This document shows, in pieces, positions 19,262 through 51,951 of a DNA stretch of 64,000 nucleotides. The DNA lies in NCBI GenBank assembly GCA_965237715.1, contig CBDEGM010000003.1:1746375-1810374 (forward strand). Direction: 5' to 3'. The notes under the pieces are model-generated. The model was not told the origin of the DNA and did not search any database. It saw nothing but the letters and a program-made list of their open reading frames with translations. How positions within the stretch are numbered: the first letter of the stretch is position 1; each line of letters opens with the position of its first letter. A program made the position numbers and the translations under genes. This stretch comes from Acidobacteriota bacterium (GTDB lineage: Bacteria; Acidobacteriota; UBA6911; RPQK01; CBDEGM01).

Positions 19262-19603
19262 TCAAGCAGCGTCTCGATAGTAGTATCGAAGCAAGCCAAC
19301 GAGCCTGGGACGGCAACTTAATTCGCCGTCCTTGCGACCCACTTCATCTCCCGCATCAATGATTCGGTTCGCGAGTCCCTGATGATTCCGTTCGTGGTGA
19401 AAGTGCTCTCCGAACTCTCTCAAGGCCCGACGCAATGACGCTTCACCAAAGAAGATCATACGGTTGAGACATTCAGATTTCAGGGAGCGCATGAAGCGTT
19501 CCAGATGAGCATTGAGATTAGGACTCTTGGGAGGTAAGACTACCGCCTCGATGGAGGCTGCCCCAAACTCAGTTGAAAGTGAAGGGCGGTTCAGGTTGAG
19601 CAC
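19262..19603 (-). pseudogene. C-terminal part of the IS481-like transposase (separated from its N-terminus by the IS256-like insertion)
   Basis: Identical to the last 113 aa of the 359-aa transposase. Confidence 0.7.
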
Positions 19604-21782: not shown

Positions 21783-21927
21783 GGTTGATTAGATGCTCAC
21801 GTCAAGTGCTCAGACGCAAAGGGGGAAAACATTGGGGCTCAACCAAGGCTGACTTCTGTTTGCCGTGACGGTTACAACTTGTTGCACAATAGAGACTTGT
21901 GGGTCGGCTGAATATTTTGACCTTACG

Positions 21928-27793: not shown

Positions 27794-28605
27794 GGCACTG
27801 TCAGAGGAAAGTCGCAAGGACTGAGTTCTCCACCGACGACAGGGAATTAGGCCGCCCCGAGCTGACGCCACTCGGCGAGTGCGGCGGCGCGGTTGAGCTT
27901 GAAATTGTCTCGTGAGCAGAGGTGTCGTGCCTGGTTGAAGTGATTGTAAACGGAAGAATGAACGGTGGCGAATTTCTGGAGGCTTTGCATCCGCCTGAAA
28001 CGGAGCATGGCGTGTTCTCGTCGCCGGAACGGCAGGTGTGAATTCTCCGCACGATTGTTCAGCCAGCGGCCGGCTTGTTGCAGACCGGATCCGCCCAGTT
28101 CGCGCAACGCCGCTCGGTAAGACCTCAGCCGATCAGTGATGATCGCATCCGGCCTGCCGTAGCGCTTCATTAGTTTCCTGAGGAATTTCAAAGCGGCTTC
28201 GCGGTCTCTCTTCTTCGAGACAAAGGCCTCAAGCACCTCGCCTTCCTGGTCGACGGCTCGCCAAAGGTAATGGCCTTCGCCGTTGATCTTCACGAACATC
28301 TCATCGAGGTGCCACCGCCAACCCGAAAACGCGCGCATTCGATCCATCCGCTTCTTGCGGATCTCGGCGGCGAAGATCGGGCCGAACCGGTTCCACCAGA
28401 ACCGGATCGTCTCGTGGCTCACCTCGATCCCACGCTCGTGAAGAAGGTCCTCGACATTGCGTAGCGACAGTGGGAAGCGAACATACATCATCACTGCCAG
28501 GCGGATGATCTCGGGCGAGGTCTTGAAATAGCGAAAGGGGTTCTTCATCCGAAGACACTACAAGGCGCATCTCGCCGACTCAAGCCAGTTTCCTCTGACA
28601 ATGCC
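27794..28605 (-). mobile_element. IS6-family element 2 (812 bp), IRs GGCACTGTCAGAGGAAA / GGCATTGTCAGAGGAAA
   Basis: IRs read directly at both ends. Confidence 0.75.
27847..28548 (-). CDS. IS6-family transposase (distinct from 14931-15653)
   Basis: 233 aa; IS6 pattern SLRNVEDLLHERG...HLDEMFVKING. Confidence 0.85.
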   Translation of the reverse strand: MKNPFRYFKTSPEIIRLAVMMYVRFPLSLRNVEDLLHERGIEVSHETIRFWWNRFGPIFAAEIRKKRMDRMRAFSGWRWHLDEMFVKINGEGHYLWRAVDQEGEVLEAFVSKKRDREAALKFLRKLMKRYGRPDAIITDRLRSYRAALRELGGSGLQQAGRWLNNRAENSHLPFRRREHAMLRFRRMQSLQKFATVHSSVYNHFNQARHLCSRDNFKLNRAAALAEWRQLGAA

Positions 28606-28687
28606 GAGTTTGGCGAATGCATATGGTCCGAGGCGATCGTCGTGAGCATAAAGCCCCCTAAGCCTGCTGGATGCTTCGCGAAACGAT

Positions 28688-28813
28688 ACTGTCAAGTTAA
28701 CCGAAATGCACTCTTTTTCGATGCGAAATCAATTCTAGCCAGCATGGAAAATCAACGACTTAGCTAGTACGTCAATCAGGGTTAACCTCCAGAAAATCAG
28801 TTAACTTGACAGT
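28688..28813. mobile_element. MITE copy a (126 bp; TIR ACTGTCAAGTTAAC, variant-1 interior)
   Basis: Perfect 14-bp TIRs. Confidence 0.6.
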
Positions 28814-29337
28814 GCCGTATCGAGCAATACCTGGATTGCCGGCCGGTCCCCCGGCCGGTCGCCGACATGGTGTAGCCGAACGACTCCCTCCGGGTCGACG
28901 AGCACGTCGCCTCCCAGTTGGCTGACATCGCCACTCGGCATCCGGAGACGCCGCCCCCGTAACAGCAGCTTCATATAGGCCCACCAAGACGGCGGTCCGA
29001 AAATACTCCACCAGTGCCCCCGGTTCATGCCATAGGCCTGATACACCTCCAGCGCACTGTCGATCAGTATCGGCCACTCCAGACGCGTGTCCCGCACATA
29101 GGCCTCGGCGACCGGGCCGCTCTGGAAGGTGACGACGACGACCTGGACATCGAGTTTCTTCAACTCCTTCTTGTGCTGTCGCAACTGCGACAGGTGTTCC
29201 CGGCACGGCAGTCAGGCTAGGTGCCGGTGAAACACCAGCAGTAGCCAGTGTCCGGAGTAGTCCGCGAGCTGGTGCCAGCGGCCTGTGAACTCGGGTAAAC
29301 GGAACCCGACGGCAGGTTGTCCGCGTTTAGTTTCCAT
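28801..29337 (-). CDS. Thioredoxin-fold TlpA/ResA-like redoxin with an in-frame TGA (29212-29214) at the CxxC first-Cys position (U-L-P-C). Candidate selenoprotein, copy A; the last codons and stop lie inside the MITE TIR
   Basis: ORFs 29212-29412 and 28801-29184 are in the same frame, separated only by TGA; alignment to TlpA (F.LP...G..L.D..G..LLV.F....U.PCR.E.P.L; WPILID; YQAYGM; VLVDPEGVV..HVG); hairpin CUGUCGC-AGUU-GCGACAG 21 nt after the UGA. Confidence 0.6.
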
Positions 29338-29474
29338 CGCCTGTGAGGGTGTGGGCAAGGCGCGCAGCAGCTTCGGGACGGTCTGCTCGGCCGTAAACCG
29401 ATTCCGTGACATTCCTAGGACTCTCCCTGGGGCACAGAACCTGCACGATTCTACACCTTATTGACAGGTCCAGT

Positions 29475-30336
29475 CGCGTTGTTGCACAATTCCGGCCGGG
29501 TCACGGACCGATCCCAGTCCTGTTTGAATGCTATCGAATTCGCACTGACTCAGGCATGCCCCGGCTTGACATACGATTCAGCACCTCACATTTGATGATG
29601 GCCTCGACCCGTTGATTGTCGAATCGTCGGGCCGACAGCTTAGGCCCAAACAACGTCTTGAACCTCGACATCGCATTCTCTGCAAGGCTTTGCCTGGCGC
29701 AACCACTGGAGATGCGCCATTCATATCGACCGAGTCTCCTTATTTCTCGTAGATGGGCATCCCGCATTGCCCGCCAGGCAGGCGGGTCCACACTTTCACT
29801 CAGCCGCGCACTGCGTCGCGGAGGGATGGTGGCGACAGCCTCCCGCTCGAGTATCGATTGATAACAGGCCCTCGTGTCATAGGCCCCGTCGCCCGAGACT
29901 TGAACGATGCGACCCGGAATCTGATCCAGCAGGGCCGGCAACAGACGACAGTCGTGGACCCGGCTCGGTGTAACCTCCACCGCCACAATCTCTTTCGTCC
30001 TCTCATCGACACCCAGGTGCAGCTTGCGCCAGGCTCTGCGCCGACCATGTCGATGCTTTCGGACGTGCCATTCACCCGAGCCGTACACTCTCAGGCCCGT
30101 CGCATCCACAACCACGTGCCGAGGCCGACTGCTTGGGCTAACAGTCAAGAACGTCGCCAAGGAACTCTGTCGTCTACTGAGAGTGCTGTAGTCTGGAACT
30201 GGCAGATCGAGTCTGAGCAACTCCAGGAGCGAAGAAACGAAGCCCTGCGTCGACCGAAGGCTAAGATGAAACACCGACTTCAATATCAGCGCACACTGAA
30301 TGGCCGTGTCGGAGTAAACCTTCGGAGCGCCGGGGC
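29475..30336 (-). mobile_element. IS903-group (IS5 family) element, truncated at its transposase-N-terminal end by IS481-like copy 7
   Basis: IR CGCGTTGTTGCACAATTCCGG at 29475; sequence near-identical to the full copy 39048-40111. Confidence 0.75.
29531..30283 (-). pseudogene. IS903-group transposase lacking about 65 N-terminal aa
   Basis: 250 aa aligning to residues 66-315 of the 315-aa transposase. Confidence 0.7.
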
Positions 30337-31555
30337 CGTAAGGTAAAAATATTCGGTCGGGCAGCGGATCCTTAGGATAGAAGGGCTCATGGGCGTGCGA
30401 GCATCGGAATCTCAGGCGATTTCCGTTGAGAAACCAGCTTTTGGAAACGGGCTCCCGGTGTGAGGTCGTCGCTCCGGCACAGCGGTGCTGACTCGACCTT
30501 CTCCCCAGTCTTATGGAGTGTATCCGAATTCAAGCAGCGTCTCGATAGTAGTATCGAAGCAAGCCACCGAGCCTGGGACGGCAACTTAATTCGCCGTCCT
30601 TGCGACCAACTTCATCTCCCGCATCAATGATTCGGTTCGCGAGTCCCTGATGATTCCGTTCGTGGTGAAAGTGCTCTCCGAACTCTCTCAAGGCCCGACG
30701 CAATGACGCTTCACCAAAGAAGATCATACGGTTGAGACATTCAGATTTCAGGGAGCGCATGAAGCGTTCCAGATGAGCATTGAGATTAGGACTCTTGGGA
30801 GGTAAGACTACCGCCTCGATGTCGCTGGACTTCAAGATCTGACGCAACGGCAAGTGCTTCGTGTCACGGTCAAGGATGACGTGGGCCGAGCTGCGGAAAA
30901 AGCCGTCGACACAGCCGGTCAGGTTCCTTCCGAGTTGCTGCATCCATTCGGAGTTGGGGTGAGGCGTCGCACCCGCGATTTCAATGCGCCGCGTCTTTAG
31001 ATGCATCACCACAAGGACGTAGAACGTGACCAGTCCTGACCGAGTCCAGACCTCAACGGTCGTAAAGTCGGCGGCTGCGATCGAATCCCAGTGAGCAGCA
31101 AGGAAGGTACGCCAGGCCGTGCGGCTCTCGCGCTCTGGAGCTGGCTCGATGCCGTGGGCTTTGAGAATGTTGCCAACCGTGGTGTCAGAAATGTGGAAGC
31201 CCAGGTTGGCTAAAGCACCCTGGATACGGTCATAGCCCCAGCTAGGATTCTCCTGAGCCATGCGCAGAGCCAAGTCCACAATCTGTTGTCGAATGCGTGG
31301 CCGGCCAACGGATTGCCTCTTGTCTGAGTGATCCCACTTGCGAGCGATAAGCTCTCGATGCCAGCGCAGAAGCGTGTCGGGCCTGACGATCTTGGCCAGT
31401 TTGCCGAGGCTTTTTCGGCCCAGCACCTTGCCCTTGACGGCCAAGCGTCGACGCTGGCCGTCGTTGAGCAGAATGCGGCGCTTGCCGAGCTTTTCTCTGA
31501 GTACCTGATTCTCAGTCAAAAGATACTCGATCGCGTCCTGCTGGTCTCTGTTGAT
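30337..31555 (-). mobile_element. IS481-like copy 7 (minus), 5' end removed by MITE copy c
   Basis: Right-end IR at 30337; homology stops at 31555, where the MITE TIR begins. Confidence 0.75.
30530..31519 (-). CDS. IS481-like transposase (ORF starts about 25 aa into the protein)
   Basis: 329 aa identical to the 359-aa family. Confidence 0.7.
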   Translation of the reverse strand: MTENQVLREKLGKRRILLNDGQRRRLAVKGKVLGRKSLGKLAKIVRPDTLLRWHRELIARKWDHSDKRQSVGRPRIRQQIVDLALRMAQENPSWGYDRIQGALANLGFHISDTTVGNILKAHGIEPAPERESRTAWRTFLAAHWDSIAAADFTTVEVWTRSGLVTFYVLVVMHLKTRRIEIAGATPHPNSEWMQQLGRNLTGCVDGFFRSSAHVILDRDTKHLPLRQILKSSDIEAVVLPPKSPNLNAHLERFMRSLKSECLNRMIFFGEASLRRALREFGEHFHHERNHQGLANRIIDAGDEVGRKDGELSCRPRLGGLLRYYYRDAA

Positions 31556-31556
31556 G

Positions 31557-31684
31557 GTACTGTCAAGTTAAGTGGAATTCTCGGGTTTTGGAGGCGAAAT
31601 CGGTCGTCGGTCGAACGTAGAATCAACAATTTAGGGACTTGCCAAGGCGCTGATTAGGCACCAAACCGGTTAACTTGACAGTAC
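31557..31684. mobile_element. MITE copy c (128 bp, TA-flanked, variant-2 interior)
   Basis: TIRs GTACTGTCAAGTTAAG / GTTAACTTGACAGTAC. Confidence 0.6.
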
Positions 31685-31898
31685 CCTAAAAAGGGCTTGA
31701 GAGACGGGCGTGTGAAAACGGTACGCCAACGCCACGCAGAAGCGTCTCTGCCAACCGAAGCCCCTCACCAGAGCATCGGCAAGCGCCCGGGATTTGGGCG
31801 GAAAACGGGGACGAGATCCACAAAAAACGTAGCAATATCAGAGATATAAGGGCGTGGCGGTGGGCGCAGTCTGGAGCGAACCCGTCTCTGGCCCGATT

Positions 31899-32095
31899 TC
31901 CCTGTTTAACAGGGAAAAAACAGGGAATTTCGTGGATTCGGCCTCGAATAGGCGGGATCGAAGCCTCCTAACCCACTGATATCATGGGGTTTCAGTTTCG
32001 AATTCCCTACGCCACGGAACAGGGAATTTGTTTGGTCGAACAGGGAATTTTCTGGGGGGAACAGGGAAAACCAGTTCGTGGAACAGGGAAGACCA
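31899..32095. repeat. Iteron-like array: four GAACAGGGAA(t/a)TT direct repeats at 21/21/22-bp spacing (32018, 32039, 32060, 32082), plus two more copies and inverted copies (31899-31927, 32001-32009)
   Basis: Read directly; the array ends 5 bp before the group II intron 5' GTGCG. Confidence 0.6.
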
Positions 32096-32100
32096 GTGCT

Positions 32101-34165
32101 GTGCGCGCGCACCGGATGCGCTGCGAATCGCAGCATCGATCCGGACAACGGGGTTCCTGCCGGCGGATGGGGTTCGCGCCGAACTACGGTGTCTTTCGCG
32201 GGTCGAGCAGCCCTATCTCAGTGGATGTCGATGAGGTAGTGATATCGGCGCACGAGACAGCGGCTGTCGTCAAGGCTCATCAGGTTGCGGAGGAATGCGT
32301 TGCAACACTTAGCTCGAAGGGTCGCCAACATCAGTGTGCCGCAGCAAGCGGCGTGAGAGATGGGAGTAGGCCTCCCGCAACCGGCTTGCAGGAGCAGGTT
32401 GCAAACCACCGTAAGTGGCTGTGGTTAAAAGCCGCGGTCGTGAGCGTTACGGAAAAGGTGCTCTAGAAGCATCAGGTGTGGATCAGGAAGACGAACACAA
32501 GTGAACCACCGTTCAAGTGCCGAAAGGACGAGATGGTGTCGAAACCGGGGAGTTGGTGTTGCCCCGGGACGAATCTGGCGGAAACCTGTCTACTGGTCAG
32601 GTGGCACCCGGCATAGAGGTGGCGTGAGCTTGATCTGGGCTCTCATGTTGAACTGCGGGAACCTGGAGCAACGATGCTAAGAGAAAGGCACAAGCAGAGA
32701 ACCTGCGAGGCCGACAGTATCGAAGCGTTGCCCAGGGGCGGACAAGCTCGTAGTAGCGATGAGGCTGCCGTAATGGCAGCGGAGCGAAGGGGCTTGGTCA
32801 CTCGGCTACAGACAAGCGGCCAACTGCTAGGCAGGAGGAGCCCTTGAAAGTAGCAAAGCCATTTGAGGTTTCTAAGAAGCTGGCAGGGCAAGCATACTTG
32901 GAGGTGAAGTCCAAAGGAGGTGCCGCAGGAGTCGATGGCGAGTCGCTTGAACTCTTCGAGCACAACTTGAAGAACAACCTCTATCGAATCTGGAACCGGC
33001 TGTGCTCCGGGAGCTATTTTCCACCACCCGTGAAAGCCGTGCCAATCCCGAAGAAATCGGGGGGCACGCGTGTTCTCGGAGTGCCTGCGGTCTCTGATCG
33101 AATCGCACAGACAGTGGTGAAGCAAGCCCTGGAGCCGATACTGGAACCGGTGTTCGATGAGGATTCTTTCGGCTATCGACCGGGAAAGTCTGCCCATGAC
33201 GCGATTGCCATCACCCGGAAACGGTGTTGGCGATACGACTGGGTGGTGGAGTTCGATATCCGCGCCCTGTTCGACAACATTGACCACGAACTGCTCATGA
33301 AGGCGTTACGCCACCATTGTCAGTGTCGTTGGGTGTTGTTGTACGTGGAGCGCTGGTTGCAGGCTCCACTTGAGCAGCCCGGCGGCAGTCTACAGGCGCG
33401 CGACAAAGGCACACCGCAAGGTGGAGTTGTGAGCCCTATTCTGGCAAATCTGTTCTTGCACTACGCGTTTGACGCGTGGGTGAGACGCCAACTGCCGGGG
33501 GTTCCATTTTGTCGATACGCCGACGATGGGCTGCTGCACTGCAAGAGCCAGTCTCAGGCGGAATACGTGATGAGCCTTATCTCGGAACGCTTCCGTGAGT
33601 GTGGGTTGGAGATCCATCCCGACAAATCGTCGATCGTCTATTGCAAGGATGTGAATCGCCTGGAAGAGCATTCGCGAATCAGCTTTGATTTCCTTGGTTA
33701 CACTTTCCGTCCGCGACGGTGTGTGAACAAGAAAGGGCAGGTTCACCCGAACTTTCTTCCTGCGATCAGTATCTCCTCGAAGAAGGAGATCAATCGATGC
33801 ATGCGTAGCTGGCATGTCCAGCTCAAGAACGAGAAGACGTTGTTGGATCTGTCTCAGATGTTCAATCCGAAACTCCGTGGTTGGCAAGCCTGCTATGGTT
33901 GCTTCCACGCGTCGGCACTGCGTCAACTGTGGCGGAACTTCAACCGGTATCTTGTGCAGTGGGTGCGAAGGAAACTCAAAAGATTTTCTGGGCATCGGCA
34001 ACGGGCGAGGCGTTACCTCGACCAGATTGCCCGTGCCAATCCGCATCTATTTATTCATTGGCGTCTTGGAGTCTTTCCTTGTGGCTTGAGTGATAGGAGC
34101 CGGATGAGCTGAGAGGTTCACGTCCGGTTCTTGGAGGGGCTGGGGGTGAGACTCCCCCGGCCTAC
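32101..34165 (+). mobile_element. Group II intron (5' GUGCG; domain V at 34097-34130; ORF in domain IV)
   Basis: Domain V GAGCCGGAUGAGCUGAGAGGUUCACGUCCGGUUC with the AGC triad; the 3' boundary is approximate. Confidence 0.7.
32844..34112 (+). CDS. Group II intron reverse transcriptase/maturase
   Basis: RT domains 0-7 with YADD; maturase X domain; 422 aa. Confidence 0.9.
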   Translation: MKVAKPFEVSKKLAGQAYLEVKSKGGAAGVDGESLELFEHNLKNNLYRIWNRLCSGSYFPPPVKAVPIPKKSGGTRVLGVPAVSDRIAQTVVKQALEPILEPVFDEDSFGYRPGKSAHDAIAITRKRCWRYDWVVEFDIRALFDNIDHELLMKALRHHCQCRWVLLYVERWLQAPLEQPGGSLQARDKGTPQGGVVSPILANLFLHYAFDAWVRRQLPGVPFCRYADDGLLHCKSQSQAEYVMSLISERFRECGLEIHPDKSSIVYCKDVNRLEEHSRISFDFLGYTFRPRRCVNKKGQVHPNFLPAISISSKKEINRCMRSWHVQLKNEKTLLDLSQMFNPKLRGWQACYGCFHASALRQLWRNFNRYLVQWVRRKLKRFSGHRQRARRYLDQIARANPHLFIHWRLGVFPCGLSDRSRMS

Positions 34166-34736
34166 TCAACCATCTTCTTCAACCACAACAAGGAAACTAG
34201 TTCGCCACCTCTTCGGTACATTTGCCCCCTTGATCTCTATGATGGACCGGAACTCCCCGCCGATGCTAGCGTGCCCGCTTACGCCGATTCATGCACCAAT
34301 GCCCTTCAACTAGTGTAGCGATCGGGACCCTCATTTCACTTGCGAAAAGTTTCCCCATTTTTCAAAAAGTTCACCCGTTCCACTTGTTAATCTTCCTAAC
34401 TCAACCATGTCAATTGGTTAGCAGAATCTCACCTGAATTTTTGGGGAAACTCCTGCAAGTGGCATGTACTAAAAAATCGGGGGAAAAAAAGGGAGGAAGG
34501 GCAGAGAAATTTAGGCGGACAAGCGGCCCTGAAAATGCATTATGCCGCGCGGGAGCGCAATGTCCGGAGCGACAGCATTTTACAACAGAGCATGAGCTGG
34601 CTACAATAACGGTCCGCTGAGATGGAGGCGTAAGCTTCCCCAGAAAAGACCCCATCCAAAAGTAGAATTTTCTGGCCCAAGGACAGAAGATGGGACAGGT
34701 TTCGCAGCAGATCGGGGTGACCGAGCAGACCTACTT

Positions 34737-34788
34737 GGGGTCACCTCTGTCCAGTTGAGGCATGCCTCAACTGGACAGAGGTGACCCC
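34737..34788. repeat. 52-bp perfect palindrome (24-bp arms GGGGTCACCTCTGTCCAGTTGAGG around CATG)
   Basis: Read directly. Confidence 0.5.
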
Positions 34789-35075
34789 TTCATAGCCAAG
34801 GCAGCGGTTGGATTTCTCGCGCTGATGGTGTAGTCCGCGCCCGCTGGCGGATGAATGGTAAAATAGACCCATGGGGAAGAAGATGACAGAAACGACAACG
34901 ATCCGGGGCGCACTGAAAGAGGCCGGATGCGAGCCCACTTTTCGCAAGACAGCGTCAGGACGAATCTCAGGGAAGTCATCCCCGTCTCAAAGGGTCTCAA
35001 AAGGGTATTGATGCCCAGGCCGGGTTACAGTACATTGGCCCCGTGGCATTGGCCCCGTGCTGAAGGGAGTACTCT

Positions 35076-35519
35076 ATGACTGGAACCATCCGTCGCGTCG
35101 ACTATTTTTATCTGACAGTACCCAACAAATCGGGCGAAGAGGTCCGGATATTAAGCACCCTAAAAGAAGCGGGTATTAACCTGCTGGCATTTTCAGGATT
35201 TCCAAGCGGCCGTCGAAGTCAGATTGACTTCGTACCTGAAGACCCCGTTGCGTTTCGAAAAGTAGCCAGAAAATCTGGCTGGAAACTAAGTCCCCGCAAG
35301 TCGTGTTTTCTAATTGAAGGAAAAGACCAGGCCGGAGCGTTTTTCGATGTGGTGTCGCGCCTCGCTGACGCGAAGATCAATGTCACAGCGTCGGCCGCCG
35401 TTTGCACGGGAGAGGGACACTATGGGGCGCTTCTATGGGTCAAACCCCCGGATGTAGGAAAAGCTGTAAGAAAACTCGGCATCAAGAAGCAGGTTGCGGC
35501 TCCTGTGTCCAGTAAATGA
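35076..35519 (+). CDS. Hypothetical protein, possible tandem ACT-like domain protein
   Basis: 147 aa; two beta-alpha-beta-beta-alpha-beta-like halves; weak. Confidence 0.3.
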   Translation: MTGTIRRVDYFYLTVPNKSGEEVRILSTLKEAGINLLAFSGFPSGRRSQIDFVPEDPVAFRKVARKSGWKLSPRKSCFLIEGKDQAGAFFDVVSRLADAKINVTASAAVCTGEGHYGALLWVKPPDVGKAVRKLGIKKQVAAPVSSK

Positions 35520-35552
35520 ATGGGGGCAAGTCGGCCGCCGGGGAATTGTTGG

Positions 35553-35590
35553 TCGAGTCGACCGGGCTCCGTCTCATGCAGCCACCTCGA
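35553..35590. repeat. Second copy of the roughly 35-bp GTCGACC...CTCCGTCTCATGCAGCCACCTCGA repeat
   Basis: See 26867-26903. Confidence 0.4.
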
Positions 35591-35709
35591 TCTGTCTCAG
35601 CACTGTTACGATCTGCTCTGGCTTGTACCTCCGTATCGGCATCTGTCTTGTCCTCCTCCGTAAGATTCTCTCTCACTTCAGTTGGTACAAATCCCCCAGG
35701 CCGGGTCAC

Positions 35710-35760
35710 CATCGAAGACAAGCCCCCCCCGAAGCGATTCATGCAACAAGCCGTCTTGGA
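35710..35760. repeat. Degenerate IS903-group-like terminal IR remnant (CGAAGCGATTCATGCAACAAGCCG)
   Basis: Compare CGAAGCGATTTATGCAACAACGCG at 40091-40111. Confidence 0.4.
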
Positions 35761-35825
35761 ACCCCAAAGCATTGTGCCGAAGACGACCCCGAGCAAGATG
35801 GGGGGCAGGAAGCTGCCGCCGACAA

Positions 35826-36362
35826 ATGGAAACTAAACGCGGACAACCTGCCGTCGGGTTCCGTTTACCCGAGTTCACAGGCCGCTGGCACCAGCTCGCG
35901 GACTACTCCGGACACTGGCTACTGCTGGTGTTTCACCGGCACCTAGCCTGACTGCCGTGCCGGGAACACCTGTCGCAGTTGCGACAGCACAAGAAGGAGT
36001 TGAAGAAACTCGATGTCCAGGTCGTCGTCGTCACCTTCCAGAGCGGCCCGGTCGCCGAGGCCTATGTGCGGGACACGCGTCTGGAGTGGCCGATACTGAT
36101 CGACAGTGCGCTGGAGGTGTATCAGGCCTATGGCATGAACCGGGGGCACTGGTGGAGTATTTTCGGACCGCCGTCTTGGTGGGCCTATATGAAGCTGCTG
36201 TTACGGGGGCGGCGTCTCCGGATGCCGAGTGGCGATGTCAGCCAACTGGGAGGCGACGTGCTCGTCGACCCGGAGGGAGTCGTTCGGCTACACCATGTCG
36301 GCGACCGGCCAGGGGACCGGCCGGCAATCCAGGTATTGCTCGATACGGCACTGTCAAGTTAA
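35826..36362 (+). CDS. TlpA-like redoxin candidate selenoprotein, copy B (TGA at 35949-35951, UxxC)
   Basis: Identical architecture to copy A; ORFs 35682-35951 and 35979-36362 in the same frame; the stop codon sits inside the MITE TIR. Confidence 0.6.
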
Positions 36363-36443
36363 CTGATTTTCTGGAGGTTACCCTGATTGACGTACTAGCT
36401 AAGTCGTTGATTTTCCATGCTGGCTAGAATTGATTTCGCATCG
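36349..36443. mobile_element. MITE copy b (variant 1), truncated by an IS903-group insertion
   Basis: One TIR plus about 80 bp of interior; the reverse complement matches copy a. Confidence 0.5.
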
Positions 36444-36825
36444 ACGCGTTGTTGCACAATTCCGGTCGGGGTCACGGACCGATCCCAGTCCTGTTTGAAT
36501 GCTATCGAATTCGCACTGACTCAGGCATGCCCCGGCTTGACATACGATTCAGCACCTCACATTTGATGATGGCCTCGACCCGTTGATTGTCGAATCGTCG
36601 GGCCGACAGCTTAGGCCCAAACAACGTCTTGAACCTCGACATCGCATTCTCTGCAAGGCTTTGCCTGGTGCAACCACTGGAGATGCGCCATTCATATCGA
36701 CCGAGTCTCCTTATTTCTCGTAGATGGGCATCCCGCATTGCCCGCCAGGCAGGCGGGTCCACACTTTCACTCAGCCGTGCACTGCGTCGCGGAGGGATGG
36801 TGGCGACAGCCTCCCGCTCGAGTTC
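36444..36825 (-). mobile_element. IS903-group fragment (IR plus the transposase C-terminal 86 codons)
   Basis: Homology to 39048-39430 stops at 36825. Confidence 0.65.
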
Positions 36826-37017
36826 CCCTTTACCCCTCTTTTCAACCTGACGGGCAACCCGGCTGCGAGTGTTCCCTGCGGCTTCAGCGAGGACGGCTTG
36901 CCGATCGGTCTACAGATCGTGGGTCGACTGAGGGACGAAGAGACGATCATAGCGGCTTCGGCCGTCTTCGAAGAGGGAAGACCCTGGGCAGAGAAGCAGC
37001 CGGGACGGTTTCCTTGA
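36826..37017 (+). pseudogene. Amidase-signature family (GatA/amidase) C-terminal fragment
   Basis: PLFNLTGNPAASVPCGF..GLPIGLQIVG.. Confidence 0.5.
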
Positions 37018-39047: not shown

Positions 39048-40111
39048 ACGCGTTGTTGCACAATTCCGGTCGGGTCACGGACCGATCCCAGTCCTGTTTG
39101 AATGCTATCGAATTCGCACTGACTCAGGCATGCCCCGGCTTGACATACGATTCAGCACCTCACATTTGATGATGGCCTCGACCCGTTGATTGTCGAATCG
39201 TCGGGCCGACAGCTTAGGCCCAAACAACGTCTTGAACCTCGACATCGCATTCTCTGCAAGGCTTTGCCTGGTGCAACCACTGGAGATGCGCCATTCATAT
39301 CGACCGAGTCTCCTTATTTCTCGTAGATGGGCATCCCGCATTGCCCGCCAGGCAGGCGGGTCCACACTTTCACTCAGCCGCGCACTGCGTCGCGGAGGGA
39401 TGGTGGCGACAGCCTCCCGCTCGAGTATCGATTGATAACAGGCCCTCGTGTCATAGGCCCCGTCGCCCGAGACTTGAACGATGCGGCCCGGAATCTGATC
39501 CAGCAGGGCCGGCAACAGACGACAGTCGTGGACCCGTCTCGGTGGAACCTCCACCGCCACAATCTCTTTCGTCCTCTCATCGACACCCAGGTGCAGCTTG
39601 CGCCAGGCTCTGCGCCGGCCATGTCGATGCTTTCGGACGTGCCCTTCACCCGAGCCGTACACTCTCAGGCCCGTCGCATCCACAACCACGTGCCGAGGCC
39701 GACTGCTTGGGCTAACAGTCAAGAACGTCGCCAAGGAACTCTGTCGTCTACTGAGAGTGCTGTAGTCTGGAACTGGCAGATCGAGTCTGAGCAACTCCAG
39801 GAGCGAAGAAACGAAGCCCTGCGTCGACCGAAGGCTAAGATGCAACACCGACTTCAATATCAGCGCACACTGAATGGCCGTGTCGGAGTAAACCTTCGGA
39901 GCGCTGGGGCCCTTGGGCGGGTCGGCGTTCCGCCAGGCGGCAACGGCGTCCTCATCGAACCAAAAGGTCAGACGCCCCCTGGCGATCAGCGCCCGATTGT
40001 AGTCTGACCAGTTGCGTACTCGGTACCGGAACGTGTATTGATTCGGCGTCATTCCTCATGCTGGCACCCTGGCCCATCGGAGACAAGCGGACGTGCCGAA
40101 GCGATTTATGC
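39048..40111 (-). mobile_element. IS903-group (IS5 family) IS, full copy of about 1064 bp, IRs CGCGTTGTTGCA(C/T)AA
   Basis: IRs at both ends. Confidence 0.8.
39105..40052 (-). CDS. IS903-group transposase (315 aa)
   Basis: IS903-like core (VVDATGLRVYGSGEGHVRKHRHGRRRAWRKLHL), DDE, C-terminal MPESVRIR. Confidence 0.85.
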   Translation of the reverse strand: MTPNQYTFRYRVRNWSDYNRALIARGRLTFWFDEDAVAAWRNADPPKGPSAPKVYSDTAIQCALILKSVLHLSLRSTQGFVSSLLELLRLDLPVPDYSTLSRRQSSLATFLTVSPSSRPRHVVVDATGLRVYGSGEGHVRKHRHGRRRAWRKLHLGVDERTKEIVAVEVPPRRVHDCRLLPALLDQIPGRIVQVSGDGAYDTRACYQSILEREAVATIPPRRSARLSESVDPPAWRAMRDAHLREIRRLGRYEWRISSGCTRQSLAENAMSRFKTLFGPKLSARRFDNQRVEAIIKCEVLNRMSSRGMPESVRIR

Positions 40112-40202
40112 AACAACGCGTTTCGTTGTAACAAAAGCCAGCTCCGCTGATGGTCAAGCCTCCGGAGCCTTAGTCCTAGTAACAATTCCAAAAGGTACGG
40201 GG

Positions 40203-43200
40203 TCAATCTCCGGAAAATGCTTCAAGCTGGCTTGAGTTCGGATGTATCCGATCCGTGTAGAGGTGCCGTTTAAAACGATTGTCGTCAAGGCGATAGATCG
40301 CAGTGTGACGCAAGCGGCCACCAAACCCAGAGCCCACTTGAATCCCGCCGTAGGCACTCTTCTCACCAGCGATCACCCAGATTGCTGAGAGATCTTGCCG
40401 GTTGAGCATCTGCAAAAATGCGTCGCGATCGACAAGAGCCCCTGCGGGGCCAGATTCAACGACGGACGGATCATAGAATGTGCCTTGTCCATCTGAGCCG
40501 ACAAAAATCAGCGATCTCCCACTCGACAGCCGAAGTCCCATTTTCTCGGCTAGCCAGGGAGCAGGTATTTTGAATATAATCGTCTGATCGATTGAGTAGT
40601 CATAGTCGCCGCTCTCGCATGCGTAGGAGGCGATCGTTGGGCGTGTTGGCACGGCGAAGGCCTGCTGATCGTCGTGCGAACTCCACCGTCCGAATTCGCT
40701 CATTTCTGGGTGCCAAGGATATTCTCCGAGGTGAAAATACCCAGAATAAAGTTCGATCTTTGGGAATGAGCTGGGATCTGTCAGAATTTTGTCCTGGAGA
40801 CTTTTGACCATCTTAGCTTGGTCTTTGCGGCGTACGACGATGCAGGTAAGCCGAAACCACGTTTCCCGCTGAATCTCCCTCTTCCCGGCCCGCACGCCAG
40901 CACCTTTCCATGTTGAAAATCCCGAGAGGGCAAGCCATCTTCGGCCCGTCTTTGGATTACACAAATCAATCAGAGCTTTATTGTTGATGATGTCGCTGTC
41001 ACTGTCCAGCCAAGCAAGACGCTCGTGGGGATCCACCGCGCGAAGCGTAGGATTGAAAGGCACCCACCACGTTTTGCGCCACTCGGCCCAACCCTTGTAA
41101 TAGGTCTGAGTAGTCAAGAAGGACGGATCGATATCGCATAGTCCGACTTCACGGGCTCCTCGATATAGGGGTGGTTCGTCATCGTCTTGTTTCCATGGAT
41201 TGTCTAAGAAGGCAAGATTGTCCGCCATGCGGGCTACAAGTTCTTGGAGTGCAAGCCATTGGTACTTCTTGCCGATGCGTTCGATCCTGTGGCCGTTTCG
41301 GTCGTAGCCGCAGAAGTGATTGTCGAAATCACCGAAGCGTTTCGATGTCCAACCCAGTTCATGGGCTCGCTTGCAGATCCATCGACGGCCCCAATGAACG
41401 TCGAAGTGTGCGGCTCGATCCGCAAAGAGTTTGTGCCGGAAAAAGTCCTTTGCTCGAACTCGGAAGTCTTCCCATTGGTCCGACGCCATCGTCTGCTGAA
41501 GAGCCCCCTCGGCGGCGGCCAACCGCTCCGCCTCCGGACTGGACTGATGGCCGTGAACATCCTTAATTCCCTCGGTGGTGCTAACATATTCCTTAAAGGC
41601 CACAAGTTGGTCTGCGGTTGCACTGGCGACAAATTCCTGTATCCAGGTTCTGCAAATGTCGAGCGAAGTCGGTAGCGGCATTGCTCCGATTTTTGCAGGA
41701 CTCCATTTGTTCACCTTGTGATCAACTACATATCGCGCAAAGTCGCCCTCATGGACGGTGGAGAATACAATCGCGTCGCCAACGGACCCGCGCCCATGAT
41801 CCTCGGTATAGCCCTTAATCAATTCGTCCGGTACCGGTTCGATAGGCCAAGGACTTTGATATGGCGGCCGTGCAAGCGCAAGGTCGATTGAGCTATCCAG
41901 TACGCCGCAGTACGCTGCGTACTCTACAATACATCGGGCATGGTCGCGCAGAAGCGCATTCGCCGGTGGTTTCCCGTTGGCAAAGACCGTGTCGAAAACC
42001 ACCTGGGCAAGTTTGCCGAGTCCCGCTTCCCGCGTTCCTTGAAGAGCGGCGCCATAGCAAGCAGCCAACAGACGCTCAAGAACATACGGATCATTCACAC
42101 TCACAAAGTCGCCCAGTAAACGAGCGGCGAGCAAAAGCCGCCGACTCAGCACGCTAGCAAGGGCCTTGGTAGCCTTATCCCTGACCTCCCGGTGCGATGT
42201 GGCAAGGAACCAAGTGAGCATTGTCGAAGCCAAGTACGCACGATCCCCGTCTATATGCTCAAGATCACTTTGAAGCGCCCAGGAAATCAGTGTCTTGACA
42301 GGCTCATCGAAGCCACGCTCTGCCAAATAGACCGACCAGCGCGCATCGCGCTCCGGCATCGTCATTCCCATGAGCCGCTTATGGACAAAGAGTGCATTGA
42401 ATTTGTTAGACGTCTCTGTGCTGATTGCGACAAGCAGGTCGGTCAACTCGTCCGCTTGAACCAAGCCTCGAACTAGTTCGAACGTGTGACTAGTAAAGTG
42501 AGACTGCTCACGCCAAAGGAGGCTATTCAGAAAAGCGTCCCGCACTGTATACGAAGCGTCAGATCCAACATCCAATATCTCAACGCGGGTCCGTTCCGGG
42601 AGTTGAATGGTCATCGCCTCGATGATTCCGGCGCGTTCATAATTCTCCGTCCCGAAAACACACTTATGGAGAGGCTGGTCGGCTTGAAAGGAACTAGCCA
42701 CATTGTGGGTATTGAGATGGTCATCGAGCAAGTGCGACGCTATAGCATGATCGCTGAAACGCTCGAACGTGAAGCGAACCATTTCAGCAAGCGATCCATC
42801 ATCTTGCCGCAAGGGTTCGACGGTGAGAAGACCTCCGTTTTCCAGCTGCGCTAGCAGACTCTTCTCAAGGCTTCCTCTCGAGTCGAGAACCGATTCAAAC
42901 AGAGTAACTACGTCGCTTTTCGCGGCATATCCTTTGCCGGCGCCCACGAGTAATTGCGCAAAGCTGGCGATAGCCTTTGATACGATTTCCAGATGAGGGT
43001 CGAGCCTCATTCCCCGGTTCAGCGACTGAGATACAGCCTCGTTGTAGAATTTAAAGATCGATGTGACGCCGCGCAAACCTCTAGGAAATTCGGTTTTTCC
43101 CTCCTTTTCCAAGGAGTCGCAGCACATTTTCAAGAAAAGCGGATTTTCAAACTCGGGAACGAGATTAGGTGCCCCAGGTCGGACCATTCCTCGTTTGTCG

Positions 43201-44702
43201 AGGTACACCTTCGCAGCTTCGCCCCCGTTCGCCGCAAAGCCTCTGTGATCGACACGGAGGAGCCGATCTTCATCTATGTCATCCGGGATCACATGCCGAA
43301 CATAGGTCGAGCGGCATGACACGATCACGCTGACTCGCGGGAAAGCCTCGAAAGTATTGAGAAAGGCTGCGAGACGCTGCGGCCAGACATTAACGCCGTT
43401 GCGTTCGTTCAAAGCATCGATGCACACAATTGCTCTCAAGCTCGCGGCCTGCGCTGCTGCGTCCAGACTCGCGAGGAAGTATTTGAACTGCACCGTTGGT
43501 GGATGATCGAGTTGATCGCGAATCTGCGGCCACAGTTCAGCGTCGATAAACGCTTCGCCGAGAAAGAGCAGCGCTGGCCCACCTTCGTGAAGTTGATGCT
43601 CCACGATGTCGGCAAGCAAATGGGACTTACCGATGCCGGCCGGGCCCTGAAGCAGAACTGCCTGCGCGTTGGTCAGCCGCCAACGGTTCGAAGCGAGGTC
43701 GCTCTTGATTTCATGCAGTACCTCCATCAGTTCATAGAGGGTATGTTGCACCAAGCGTTCGGACTTGATGCCCATACTGCCGGGCTTGGAAGGCGGAAGG
43801 TCGTAGGACCAACGAAGGGCCTTTCTAGCGAGGTCGAGACCGTCTGCAGCTGCGGCACTCCAATCGGTTACAGGATAGGGTTGGTCGGGGCCGATTGGAT
43901 CCCCGTCAAGCAAAGACGTCAGAGCACAAATTGCCTCATCCAGAGGATCGATATGGGTTTCGGCTTCCTCCGCACCTGTTCCGCGTATGGCTTTTACGGC
44001 GCCGCTTCCTTTTTCGTTGACGCGTATAAACCACCCATCGATCTGCCTCTGAAGCTCAGGATGGCGTGCGAAGGCGAGGAAGTCCTGTCTGATTGGGAGT
44101 TCAACGTTTGTTTCGGGAGTGTATCGGCTGCCCAGAGACGCCCTTGCCTTCCCAAATTGCTCCTTGAACCAAGTCGTTGTTAGGGCCGCGTGGCCGAACC
44201 AGTACAGGACTCGACCTGAGTGGGCGGGGTCTTCTCTGACCAGACGAAGGCTGAGTTCGCTCTTGCCCCACAACCTGATAGTCAGGTCACGCTTCTGCAA
44301 TGCGGCAAACTCTTCCCATTTCGTGCACCAAGCGTCCCACTTCTCTTGTGCGGTCTTGCCCTTGCCGGTTCGGGAATCGGGAAGATCGAACGGAAGGCAG
44401 ACGATGTAATTAACGAGATTCGGGTGCCTATTCAACGCCGTGCATATTGAAACGTCAAGCTGTGCTGTCAGGCTTGCATTCCAGCTAAAGAGGTACTTGG
44501 CTTGCCATCCGACTTCCGTCCCGTCTGCACGGCGGCGGTAGCATTCGACACCAGCGTCGCCGCCCCGGCCTTTCCGATAGAATTTTCCTTCCGTGGATGT
44601 TGGCTCCAAAGAGGCGAGTTGGCAACACATTTCCTCAAACCCGGCGTGACGGCTTCCGTCAACCGGGCGAATCTTCTCGAAATTGATGTCTGGTAGGCTC
44701 AT
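40203..44702 (-). CDS. Avs4-like antiviral STAND NTPase: N-terminal Mrr-type PD-(D/E)xK nuclease, P-loop STAND ATPase and a long helical C-terminal sensor (1499 aa)
   Basis: Mrr-cat-like GGDAGVEC..(13)..GWQAKY; Walker A GPAGIGKSHLL; Walker B IVCIDALNE; sensor-1 VSVIVSCRST; about 900 aa of C-terminal helical region. Confidence 0.55.
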   Translation of the reverse strand: MSLPDINFEKIRPVDGSRHAGFEEMCCQLASLEPTSTEGKFYRKGRGGDAGVECYRRRADGTEVGWQAKYLFSWNASLTAQLDVSICTALNRHPNLVNYIVCLPFDLPDSRTGKGKTAQEKWDAWCTKWEEFAALQKRDLTIRLWGKSELSLRLVREDPAHSGRVLYWFGHAALTTTWFKEQFGKARASLGSRYTPETNVELPIRQDFLAFARHPELQRQIDGWFIRVNEKGSGAVKAIRGTGAEEAETHIDPLDEAICALTSLLDGDPIGPDQPYPVTDWSAAAADGLDLARKALRWSYDLPPSKPGSMGIKSERLVQHTLYELMEVLHEIKSDLASNRWRLTNAQAVLLQGPAGIGKSHLLADIVEHQLHEGGPALLFLGEAFIDAELWPQIRDQLDHPPTVQFKYFLASLDAAAQAASLRAIVCIDALNERNGVNVWPQRLAAFLNTFEAFPRVSVIVSCRSTYVRHVIPDDIDEDRLLRVDHRGFAANGGEAAKVYLDKRGMVRPGAPNLVPEFENPLFLKMCCDSLEKEGKTEFPRGLRGVTSIFKFYNEAVSQSLNRGMRLDPHLEIVSKAIASFAQLLVGAGKGYAAKSDVVTLFESVLDSRGSLEKSLLAQLENGGLLTVEPLRQDDGSLAEMVRFTFERFSDHAIASHLLDDHLNTHNVASSFQADQPLHKCVFGTENYERAGIIEAMTIQLPERTRVEILDVGSDASYTVRDAFLNSLLWREQSHFTSHTFELVRGLVQADELTDLLVAISTETSNKFNALFVHKRLMGMTMPERDARWSVYLAERGFDEPVKTLISWALQSDLEHIDGDRAYLASTMLTWFLATSHREVRDKATKALASVLSRRLLLAARLLGDFVSVNDPYVLERLLAACYGAALQGTREAGLGKLAQVVFDTVFANGKPPANALLRDHARCIVEYAAYCGVLDSSIDLALARPPYQSPWPIEPVPDELIKGYTEDHGRGSVGDAIVFSTVHEGDFARYVVDHKVNKWSPAKIGAMPLPTSLDICRTWIQEFVASATADQLVAFKEYVSTTEGIKDVHGHQSSPEAERLAAAEGALQQTMASDQWEDFRVRAKDFFRHKLFADRAAHFDVHWGRRWICKRAHELGWTSKRFGDFDNHFCGYDRNGHRIERIGKKYQWLALQELVARMADNLAFLDNPWKQDDDEPPLYRGAREVGLCDIDPSFLTTQTYYKGWAEWRKTWWVPFNPTLRAVDPHERLAWLDSDSDIINNKALIDLCNPKTGRRWLALSGFSTWKGAGVRAGKREIQRETWFRLTCIVVRRKDQAKMVKSLQDKILTDPSSFPKIELYSGYFHLGEYPWHPEMSEFGRWSSHDDQQAFAVPTRPTIASYACESGDYDYSIDQTIIFKIPAPWLAEKMGLRLSSGRSLIFVGSDGQGTFYDPSVVESGPAGALVDRDAFLQMLNRQDLSAIWVIAGEKSAYGGIQVGSGFGGRLRHTAIYRLDDNRFKRHLYTDRIHPNSSQLEAFSGD

Positions 44703-45115: not shown

Positions 45116-45123
45116 TTCGGTAC

Positions 45124-45245
45124 TGTCAAGTTAACCGATTTGGTGTCTAATCAGCGCCTCGGCCACTCCCTAAGTTGTTGATTCTACATTCGACCGCCGA
45201 CCGTTTCCGCCTCCAAAACCCGAGAACTCCACTTAACTTGACAGT
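45124..45245. mobile_element. MITE copy d (122 bp, variant 2)
   Basis: TA-CTGTCAAGTTAAC...GTTAACTTGACAG-TA. Confidence 0.6.
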
Positions 45246-45499
45246 ACCAGTTACCGGGTTCATCCTTGAAATTCGCTCCGATCGGATGAATCCAATAGTC
45301 GTACGTCTTACCCGAAGCGCCTTCCCACTTAATGATGTCAGCCATCGATTTTTCCCTCTGAACTCAACTACTACTAGTTGTCATTTTCCACCGAAGCTCC
45401 CGGCGCTCGGGGGCGAGGTGTCGCGGATCACCTTCACCGGCCCGCTCAGGCCGGAGCGGGCTTCGGCGATGGGAACCAAGCCGTCTTGTTGTTTACGCT

Positions 45500-47185: not shown

Positions 47186-47274
47186 GTACTGTCAAGTTAA
47201 CCGATTTGGTGTCTAATCAGCGCCTCGGCCACTCCCTAAGTTGTTGATTCTACATTCGACCGCCGACCGTTTCC
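47186..47274. mobile_element. MITE copy e (variant 2), 3'-truncated by insertion of IS481-like copy 1
   Basis: Identical to copy d up to ...CCGACCGTTTCC, then the IS IRL. Confidence 0.55.
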
Positions 47275-49088: not shown

Positions 49089-49893
49089 GGCATTGTCACG
49101 TTAAGTGATCTAACCGCGACCTGGATTCTAGTGTAGCCTTTTGGGATGGACACCATCTCCTTCAAACGTCACCGCTTTCCACCGGAAATCATTCGACGCG
49201 CCGTTTGGCTCTATGCCAGGTTCACTCTGAGCTATCGGGATGTGGAGGATCTTCTTGCGGAGCGAGGTCTGGATATTTCCCACGAGAGCGTACGGCGCTG
49301 GTTCCTCAAGTTTGGTGCGCCGATTGCCCGAAACCTGCGCCACACGCGACCCATTCCCAACGGCTATTGGCATCTTGATGAGAGGGTCATCGTGATTCGC
49401 GGACAGCGTTATTGGTTATGGCGCGCGGTCGACAATGAAGGCGAGGTCCTGGATTTCCTCGTGCAATCGAAGCGGAACGCCCAAGCAGCGTTGAAGTTGA
49501 TGCGCAAGCTGCTGAAGAAACAAGGCTGGCCACCCACCCGGATTACAACCGATAAACTCAGGTCCTATCACGTCGCCATTCGAACCCTCGGCCTGACGGC
49601 TCAACACATCGACGATAGGCGTGCGAATCATCGTGCCGAGAATTCGCATCAGCCCGTCCGGCGTCGAGAACGAAAACAGCAGCGTTTCAAATCACCGGGT
49701 TCGGCCCAACGCTTTCTGAACATTCAATCCGCCGTTTACAACACCTTTTATGTCCAGCGGCATTTACGCAACAGATTCACGTTCAAACGATTTCGAAAAG
49801 ACGCATTCAATGTATGGGAAAGTGCGAGTGCGGCCGCCTGAAAGGGAATCCATGCGGGCCTTTGCGGCCCAACACGATTAACGTGACAATGCC
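49089..49893 (+). mobile_element. IS6-family element 3 (805 bp), IRs GGCATTGTCACGTTAA
   Basis: IRs at 49089 and 49878-49893. Confidence 0.75.
49146..49841 (+). CDS. IS6-family transposase (third distinct type)
   Basis: 231 aa; IS6 pattern. Confidence 0.85.
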   Translation: MDTISFKRHRFPPEIIRRAVWLYARFTLSYRDVEDLLAERGLDISHESVRRWFLKFGAPIARNLRHTRPIPNGYWHLDERVIVIRGQRYWLWRAVDNEGEVLDFLVQSKRNAQAALKLMRKLLKKQGWPPTRITTDKLRSYHVAIRTLGLTAQHIDDRRANHRAENSHQPVRRRERKQQRFKSPGSAQRFLNIQSAVYNTFYVQRHLRNRFTFKRFRKDAFNVWESASAAA

Positions 49894-51950: not shown

Positions 51951-51951
51951 C

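Follow-up and report, generated by a model that had tools for sequence, protein, structure and literature searches.

Intact copies of a SelL-related selenoprotein gene with a MITE-derived 3′ end amid insertion sequences of a soil acidobacterium

How does a gene whose reading frame depends on a selenocysteine (Sec) codon come to lie in several copies among mobile elements, and is it then still a gene? The question is raised by a 64-kb stretch of contig CBDEGM010000003.1 (Acidobacteriota bacterium, assembly GCA_965237715.1), here called the window, in which two inverted copies of one gene with an in-frame TGA, copies A and B, end within a miniature inverted-repeat transposable element (MITE) and lie next to ends of insertion sequences (ISs). 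The explanation that accounts best for the whole, and that we hold with considerable confidence, is that copy B is an intact paralogue of the SelL-related/peroxiredoxin (Prx)-like thiol:disulfide oxidoreductases which is found amid IS-driven rearrangement. Loci used for comparison are cited by number (L001 and so on), and the coordinates of the features are collected in Table 1.

With Sec written as Cys, the product of copy B matches the NCBIfam profile NF040769 ('SelL-related redox protein') at 173.8 bits against a cut-off of 120, and despite the truncation of the 3′ end the alignment spans profile positions 4-172 of 173. Matches in Pfam are to PF00578 (AhpC-TSA; 70.4 bits, cut-off 26), PF13911 (AhpC-TSA_2) and Redoxin, and a sequence search of the PDB returned only distant DsbE/ResA-type CxxC oxidoreductases (E ~5e-6). 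The redox motif U-L-P-C aligns, in its context, to the HLGCLPC of the Cys forms P0004, P0006 and P0017. A search of a collection of 5.8 billion proteins gave 107 homologues, most of them calls of 125-138 aa that start just past the TGA and few of them full-length proteins with Cys (HLGCLPC). The homologous codon could be scored in 77 of 80 loci recovered from GTDB species genomes and is TGA in 75 and TGT (Cys) in two. Matches obtained with tblastn run across the TGA in one frame on both sides, and the peptide LLVFHRHL-x-U-LPC-REH is conserved in Acidobacteriota, Planctomycetota, Myxococcota, Rokubacteria and others. Comparison with 12 relatives at ~90% nucleotide identity, all of them intact, gives dN/dS values of 0.27-0.50.

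In the usual bacterial arrangement SelB binds a Sec insertion sequence (SECIS) element just after the UGA. The hairpin that follows codon 42 of the window gene has an apex, GCAGUUGC, which is invariant in 73 distinct sequences, and 94.5% of the cells of its helix are paired. Compensatory change affects four of the seven pairs, with 62 double-change cells against 16.7 in shuffles (none of 500 reached the observed value), and shifting the partner by one, two or three columns, as a control, makes the signal collapse. In the two Cys forms the stem is disrupted. The retention of the TGA at 75 of 77 loci together with a covarying hairpin therefore argues for a real selenoprotein gene and against a decaying pseudogene; as far as sequence comparison can tell, the selenoprotein gene is genuine and its family a known one. 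UGA codon 42 would be decoded as Sec with the aid of the hairpin inside the open reading frame (ORF), presumably through SelB, and Sec insertion at this codon as well as expression of either copy are predicted. The two Cys homologues, L019 and L021 (metagenome-assembled genomes, MAGs, of Phycisphaerae; positions 3124-3189), are the only Cys cases among the 77 loci and have lost the lower SECIS stem while keeping the GCAGUUGC core, which looks like a Sec-to-Cys conversion with relaxation of the RNA structure.

The two copies of the window were aligned as the initial annotation had proposed, and share 620 bp of DNA that are 99.7% identical, from the ATG into the MITE. The homology begins exactly at the ATG (...caggcgATG in copy A, ...cgacaaATG in copy B), in agreement with the earlier view that the sequences upstream differ. 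A repeat search returns an ungapped inverted repeat of 558 nt (28780-29337/35826-36383), and when one indel is allowed the pairwise alignment reaches 28718/36444. One of the two differences is a synonymous CCG/CCA (Pro) substitution at 28852/36311 and the other is one extra A in the MITE of copy A (GGTTAACCC versus GGTT-ACCC), 3′ of the stop. Both copies thus have an intact ORF and specify an identical protein, which in copy B starts at ATG 35826 and closes with ...LLDTALSS before TAA 36360-36362. The TGA at codon 42 and the hairpin that follows, at which a difference between the copies had been named as the observation that would tell against Sec, are the same in both, and the alignment and the tails of relatives confirm that both also share the MITE-derived C-terminus. 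As inverted repeats lying 6.5 kb apart, A and B could allow the intervening segment, which holds an IS5, an IS481-like element, a MITE, a group II intron and an ACT gene, to be inverted.

An inverted duplicate of this kind might be suspected to be an assembly artefact: the source contig (ENA ERZ26167216 ctg495427, 1.40 Mb) is a long-read metagenome contig of low coverage (10.8x), repeats abound in the region, and of the two differences between the copies one is an indel of a single base. However the junctions of A, B and a third copy, C, are distinct and self-consistent, with an intact MITE in one place and an IS5-cut MITE in another, or an IS3-like fusion as opposed to a native leader. The same types of junction also recur independently, since the MITE of copy A and the 69 bp that follow it are found in L096, and the leader of copy B in L085 and L001. 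An artefact is accordingly given hardly any credence here.

The predicted function of the gene nevertheless has to be weighed against several observations that run counter to the explanation given at the outset. The folding energy of the single sequence after the UGA is unexceptional (z = -0.85), so that support for the hairpin is comparative only, and a scan of 35700-36500 with Rfam (E<=10) gave no SECIS family and a single chance match to isrG (8.6 bits). None of selA, selB, selD or tRNA-Sec is found within the 64-kb window, where the tRNA scan returned no tRNA, and scans upstream of copies A and B gave no sigma-70-like promoter. Only two positions differ between the copies, and selection on each copy cannot be assessed from these; at 10.8x long-read coverage such small differences could also equal sequencing errors. 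Finally, the MITE and IS5 copies inspected are not flanked by target-site duplications (TSDs), and no single transposition event is documented by them. Some of these points would also fit a TGA that is a true stop, with both copies being decaying pseudogenes or fragments in an IS graveyard: the MITE cuts short the 3′ end, copy A is without leader, and neither a promoter nor Sec machinery was detected in the sequence searched. This would leave unexplained why protein conservation extends to both sides of a TGA kept at 75 of 77 loci, why the hairpin covaries and why dN/dS stays below one; eight MITE-junction sequences examined all keep the TGA, the hairpin and the open frame, with no frameshift or extra stop, and the profile is covered almost in full. 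Decay is therefore strongly disfavoured and regarded as very improbable.

The 3′ end of the window copies sets them apart from their relatives. Close relatives end in ...LLDTVRRGRHRAF and a stop, a sequence from which the window copies part exactly at GATAC/GGCACTGTC (GATAC/GGCACTGTCAAGTTAAC), the slash marking the junction. As this point coincides with the MITE terminus, it is the 132-bp element with its 17-bp terminal inverted repeats (TIRs) that supplies the final codons, (A)LSS, and the stop. Codons of the ancestral end were not found past the MITE, and the junction is thus likely to represent either an insertion with a deletion or a recombination at the element end. Across the family the tail after LLD is variable in both length and sequence. 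At some point before the copies now seen came into being, the gene would have become linked at its 3′ end to one end of an IS6-type MITE, a step that would have removed the last ~10 codons (VRRGRHRAF) and provided ALSS and a stop codon.

The element itself is short (128-132 bp), non-coding and multi-copy, and its 17-bp TIR, GGCACTGTCAAGTTAAC, has eight matches in the window compared with 0.02 expected by chance. The initial annotation had tied the MITE to the IS903 group, an assignment that does not hold: the first 11 nt of the TIR are identical to the inverted repeats (IRs) of the window IS6 elements at 27794-28605 and 49089-49893, and 15 of its 17 nt match the IS6 IRs GGCATTGTCACGTTAA in L096, L091 and L004. 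At the four MITE copies inspected for TSDs the flanks are unmatched. An origin as an integron cassette was also considered and rejected on inspection, as the MITE ends AGTTAAC/GTTAACT misfit the attC core sites RYYYAAC/GTTRRRY. In L005 and L006, which carry a ~90%-identical allele, a related MITE (TIR GGCATTGTCAAGTTGAC) lies at a different site ~65 bp past the stop of the gene (3588-3720), and MITEs of this family would therefore have landed beside the gene more than once.

Further copies, which the initial annotation had suggested looking for, exist both in the same contig and in other assemblies. Contig ERZ26167216:ctg495427 contains three copies, with copy C ~200 kb from those of the window, at ~106 kb of the contig. 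Copies B and C have ~5 kb in common (L085 3785-8844 versus window 31823-36823, 99.3-99.7% identity, with weaker identity over 31686-31822), a block that comprises a group II intron, an ACT-domain gene and an IS5-like stub, followed by leader, gene, cut MITE and an IS5 that in copy C continues for at least 1009 nt. As the IS5 in the MITE is present in both, its insertion predates the B/C duplication, which was segmental. One and the same gene-MITE junction allele was seen in six or more contexts from five metagenome assemblies, and the protein cluster around it counts 11 members, whose lengths and C-termini are of five kinds. Related assemblies are ERZ25072076, ERZ25067264, ERZ25766727 and ERZ25074053. 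By comparison, the ~90%-identical alleles of other genomes, among them MAGs labelled Bryobacterales, Acidiferrales and Terriglobia, share only ~0.6-0.7 kb (leader and gene) with one another and with the window, and their flanks are non-syntenic and contain IS5-type, DUF772-type, IS3, IS256 and IS6 sequences; one MAG carries two copies of the gene. The ends of shared DNA coincide nearly always with IS or MITE termini. A side observation concerns the IS110-family element of L001 (10369-12176), which lies in the MITE TIR (GGCACTGTC, IS110, TCAAGTTAACC...) and changes the C-terminus to ...ALSTIIF, and suggests that such elements target MITE ends.

The flanks of copy B agree for the most part with the earlier description. 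The degenerate IS903-like IR that had been placed upstream, at 35710-35760, is real: the stub at 35709-35749 is 81% identical over 43 nt to the full-length IS5 copies at their left ends (40074-40116 and 62722-62764), and relatives are homologous to copy B only from about 35754-35757 onwards. Between stub and gene lies the native leader, which is ~90% conserved in L002-L011 and 96-99% in L001, L092, L093 and L096, where it is 130-290 nt long. It is considered non-coding because relatives differ by indels and no consistent ORF is present. Conservation of the leader (35756-35825; up to ~290 nt before the ATG in L093/L096) is about as high, at 90-99%, as that of the coding region, and a small antisense ORF in it with a transmembrane-like peptide (GSFLPPILLGVVFG) was rejected, as it lacks a start codon and indels disrupt its frame in several relatives. 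On the 3′ side, the truncated MITE followed by an IS903-group fragment is likewise substantiated, the MITE being cut after 98 nt, at 36444, by an IS5 right end that is 99% identical to 39050-39428, 29476-29852 and 63412-63788. The amidase-like fragment joined directly to this truncated IS5 is evidence of an IS-associated deletion beside copy B.

Further to the left, Pfam matches in the 5-kb block are to RVT_1/GIIM and ACT. The group II intron spans 32200-34172, with a reverse transcriptase/maturase ORF at 32844-34112 and matches to RF01999 (32362-32477) and RF00029 (34095-34170), and a second copy, 99.8% identical, lies in the same contig (L085 12177-13427). DNA left of the B/C block, homologous to window 31686-32182, abuts a large serine recombinase and a DUF2924 gene in L085 (1349-3554) and L001 (18226-20393 and 7713-9509). 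L001 also has a terminase-like gene beside the selenoprotein gene, and the B/C block may have originated in an integrative or prophage-like element.

Copy A differs from copy B on both sides. An intact IS903-group IR had been reported next to it at 29475, and an IS5 end is indeed found at 29476, belonging to an element truncated by an IS481-like copy. A 138-bp segment stands in place of the leader; of the 25 codons that it adds in frame, the first 17 (MSRNRFTAEQTVPKLLR) resemble MAGKRFSAEQIIIKLREAEV, the start of an IS3 OrfA (PF01527) in L095. No further copy of this segment was found in the window or in the 96 loci, and its IS3-like nature is suggested by the 17-codon similarity only. Copy A is thereby an in-frame fusion with 25 foreign codons (29338-29412, minus strand) that may be translated as such or be driven by an IS promoter. 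On the other side, 79 bp (28606-28684) separate its MITE from an IS6-family element.

Full copies of the IS5 element occur at 39050-40131 and 62707-63788, with IRs CGCGTTGTTGCAYAA and a transposase of PF13737 + PF01609 architecture (DDE) that matches NF033579 at 257 bits. The terminal inverted repeats of the former are present (CGCGTTGTTGCACAA... at 39049 and ...TTATGCAACAACGCG at 40120); its 9-bp TSD was not found (flanks AGGTGGAGA and TTTCGTTGT), and the copies beside A and B are truncated. In tblastn the 315-aa transposase matched at least 5000 records over its full length at <60% identity, mostly in Klebsiella/Escherichia plasmids, and all of the matches listed cover 80% or more of the query in a single place. 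From these matches, and from the similarity of its IRs to those of IS903, we take the element to belong to the IS903 subgroup.

Does the gene move as a unit? The initial annotation regarded it as cargo associated with IS and MITE elements, which stands in the broad sense that one allele is found in at least six contexts with IS or MITE boundaries; a stricter sense lacks paired ends and TSDs. The IS5 ends at A and B lie on opposite sides of the gene and are thus independent insertions, not two ends of one unit, and the closest partner of B, copy C, is related to it through the 5-kb segment, a segmental duplication as opposed to the hop of a small cassette. Looking for a composite transposon or translocatable unit revealed neither a consistent second end nor a TSD, the upstream boundary being different in each context, and in 21 contexts no second IS6 or MITE end was seen upstream of the gene at a consistent position.

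A discrete unit, whether gene plus MITE or gene between IS5/IS903-like ends, and comparable to a Tn903-like composite or an IS26-style translocatable unit, would have the merit of explaining why six or more contexts show an unchanged junction, GATAC/GGCACTGTC, while the DNA past the distal MITE end differs (L092, L093, L096/copy A and L001), a pattern that would place the breakpoints at a transposase substrate. L001 even has a different MITE body behind the same junction, copy B is located between two directly oriented IS5-type ends, and the relatives L004, L090 and L091 are likewise bracketed by IS5-type sequences. The upstream boundaries, however, are nested (0, 70, ~130, ~250, ~290 nt and >1 kb of leader) and end at different IS families, with no second MITE or IS6 end consistently placed and no TSDs. 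Moreover the IS5-like end to the left of copy B, with a similarity of just 81%, is reduced to a stub, and the 5-kb B/C duplication ignores the ends that flank the gene. A discrete unit is therefore judged doubtful.

The B/C block, together with the many near-identical ISs (98-100%) of the island, many of them truncated and without TSDs, fits rather better with passive copying by homologous recombination or segmental duplication among these ISs, in which the gene would be a bystander. This we hold to have somewhat less than an even chance, as it explains poorly the shrinkage of shared DNA to a 0.6-0.7-kb gene unit across ~90%-identical alleles and the presence of one junction allele in at least six contexts and five assemblies. 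Passive copying is less an alternative to the best explanation than a process overlapping with it. Given the nested truncations at different IS families and the want of TSDs and paired ends, IS-driven rearrangement in general (insertion, adjacent deletion, segmental duplication and recombination at IS or MITE ends) is favoured over one defined transposon. Under such rearrangement the gene-MITE allele would have spread within this genome and to related genomes, probably of Acidobacteriota, likely through insertion of IS5/IS903-like, IS3-like, IS6 and IS110 elements around or into the allele, with adjacent deletions and segmental duplication. Copy B retains 70 nt of the native leader, has the IS5-like stub as its upstream boundary and would have received in its MITE an IS5 that was then truncated; copy A would have lost the leader and is fused in frame to an IS3-like OrfA start. 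The mechanism of each individual move is conjectural.

Table 1. Features of the window around the selenoprotein gene copies, and contexts of the gene-MITE junction allele
Feature	Position	Strand	Remarks
Copy B, SelL-related (Prx-like, U-L-P-C) selenoprotein gene	35826-36362	+	178 codons including Sec
In-frame TGA (codon 42), read as Sec	35949-35951	+	motif HLA-U-LPC-REH
Putative SECIS hairpin	stem 35970-35976/35981-35987	+	CUGUCGC/GCGACAG, loop AGUU; starts 18 nt past UGA, 7 bp
Native 5′ leader	35756-35825	+	70 nt in copy B, absent from copy A; conserved in relatives
Stub of left end of diverged IS5/IS903-like element	35709-35755	+	…CCGAAGCGATTCATGCAACAAGCCG; abuts gene leader; ~45-70 nt left
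IS6-type MITE, first 98 nt	36347-36444	+	supplies last codons (A)LSS and stop of copy B
IS5/IS903-like right-end fragment	36445-36823	+	IR + 379 nt (CGCGTTGTTGCACAATTCC...); inserted in MITE, later truncated
Amidase-like gene, C-terminal fragment	36824-37017	+	joined to truncated IS5; assigned by sequence inspection, no profile
Rest of ~5-kb block common to B and C	31686-35708	+	recombinase-adjacent sequence, group II intron, ACT-domain gene, IS debris
Copy A, same gene as copy B	28801-29337	-	read 29337 to 28801
Complete 132-bp MITE at 3′ end of copy A	28685-28816	-	same as MITE of copy B save one indel
138-bp segment in place of leader of copy A	29338-29475	-	adds 25 in-frame codons (MSRNRFTAEQTVPKLLRALPTPSQA)
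IS5/IS903-like element beside copy A	29476-30337	-	truncated by IS481-like element (30335-31555)
IS6-family element beyond MITE of copy A	27794-28605	-	PF13610 141.8 bits, NF033587 196.9 bits; IRs GGCACTGTCAGAGGAAAG/GGCATTGTCAGAGGAAAC
MITE copies	28685-28816, 31556-31685, 36347-36444 (cut), 45119-45248, 47185- (cut)		more in L001, L005, L006
IS481-like copies	30335-31555, 47274-48691, 50708-51950, 51951-53371, 56047-57468, 60287-61707		fragments 19067-19553, 20988-21927
Context: copy A and L096			share MITE and 69 bp beyond
Context: copies B and C			leader, cut MITE, IS5
Context: L001			IS110-family element inside MITE TIR; MITE body a different variant
Context: L092			separate gene-MITE junction context
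Context: L093-L095			between MacB-type transporter and TonB receptor; possibly oldest context
Context: L096			leader bounded upstream by IS3 end

Comparison with known systems shows which parts of this locus are familiar. Like the SelL-related/Prx-like family, the window gene combines a thioredoxin/AhpC-TSA fold with Sec as the first residue of U-x-x-C and an in-ORF hairpin past the UGA, its function being predicted. It departs from that family in the replacement of its last ~10 residues by four MITE-encoded ones, in its three copies within IS debris and in the foreign N-terminal extension of copy A. Eukaryotic selenoprotein L (SelL) is Prx-like, with a UxxU diselenide motif and a SECIS in the 3′ untranslated region; the window gene resembles it in the Prx-like fold and the position of the redox motif and differs in having one Sec (U-L-P-C) and an in-ORF SECIS, the relation being a distant one indicated by the NCBIfam name only. 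The hairpin resembles the fdhF-type SECIS of Escherichia coli in lying directly past the UGA, inside the coding sequence, with a G-U-containing apical loop; this begins 25 nt past the UGA, where bacterial SECIS search models use 16-37 nt. Unlike that type it is family-specific (GCAGUUGC apex) and has no Rfam model, and binding by SelB is presumed.

Among mobile systems, a Tn903-type composite transposon has its cargo flanked by two IS903 copies. The window gene is similarly found between two IS5/IS903-like ends, with IS903-like IRs and a PF13737 + PF01609 transposase, in contrast to Tn903 however both flanking elements are truncated and directly oriented, the left one is a different (81%) stub, and there is no TSD. 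With IS26/IS6 translocatable units the locus shares the IS6-family terminal motif of its MITE TIR (GGCACTGTCA...) and one constant IS6-type junction with a variable other end, as would be expected for end-targeted recombination or adjacent deletions; unlike them, it has a non-autonomous anchor of 132 bp, no 8-bp TSDs and no directly repeated IS6 around the gene. As the constant junction is accompanied by variable distal flanks and by a different MITE body in L001, mobilisation of IS6 type anchored on the MITE may be the most interesting mechanism that remains.

The island in which these copies are found belongs to a soil bacterium, and is taken to be chromosomal since the first 14 kb of the window hold housekeeping genes (holA, ddl, psd, glyQS and murJ). 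Homologues of the gene were absent from viral contigs (IMG/VR) and from a plasmid database, and a plasmid or phage location of the region is unsupported. The IS load of the window amounts to at least six IS481-like copies, five IS5 copies or fragments, two IS6 elements and several MITEs, at 98-100% identity. The IS481/rve_3-type IS, ~1.42 kb long, has six or more near-identical copies, of which several interrupt other IS elements, and it recurs at 98-99% identity in contigs of other samples (L001, L085, L090). Two large minus-strand ORFs lie between IS copies, one of 1499 aa (40203-44702) with weak NACHT/AAA_16 matches and one of 872 aa (53493-56111) with an AAA_13 match; both are possibly defence-related.

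The family is listed in selenoproteome surveys as 'Prx-like thiol:disulfide oxidoreductase' with UxxC/UxxU motifs and PF00578 (PMC2398784, PMC13188914, PMC5029168), the first of which also mentions eukaryotic SelL. Bacterial surveys discuss horizontal transfer of the Sec trait, and the words mobile, plasmid and duplicat- were not found in the text of a 2026 selenoproteome review. The gene family, the Sec codon and the general SECIS arrangement are thus already known, and there is no new biochemistry here; the unusual part is the genomic behaviour, a MITE-truncated allele that persists and has been copied to many IS-bounded places, the gene being met in such contexts in numerous contigs of soil metagenomes. 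Its evolutionary value is modest: a multi-copy Prx-like selenoprotein gene with a MITE-derived 3′ end whose ORF stays intact across several lineages. A selenoprotein gene requires no more than the hairpin within it and a host able to decode Sec, and the present case shows concretely how such a gene can be duplicated and moved to new places. For annotation, most entries of the family are stop-truncated at the TGA (about 125-138 aa), so that copy number and spread are easily missed. More speculatively, and in our estimate improbably, the gene with its in-ORF decoding signal might be a portable module of ~0.65 kb, welded to an IS6-type MITE, captured by transposases, amplified and passed among soil Acidobacteriota. 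Were this true, selenoprotein dosage would be a mobile and selectable trait in Sec-decoding hosts, with three copies here and two in another MAG.

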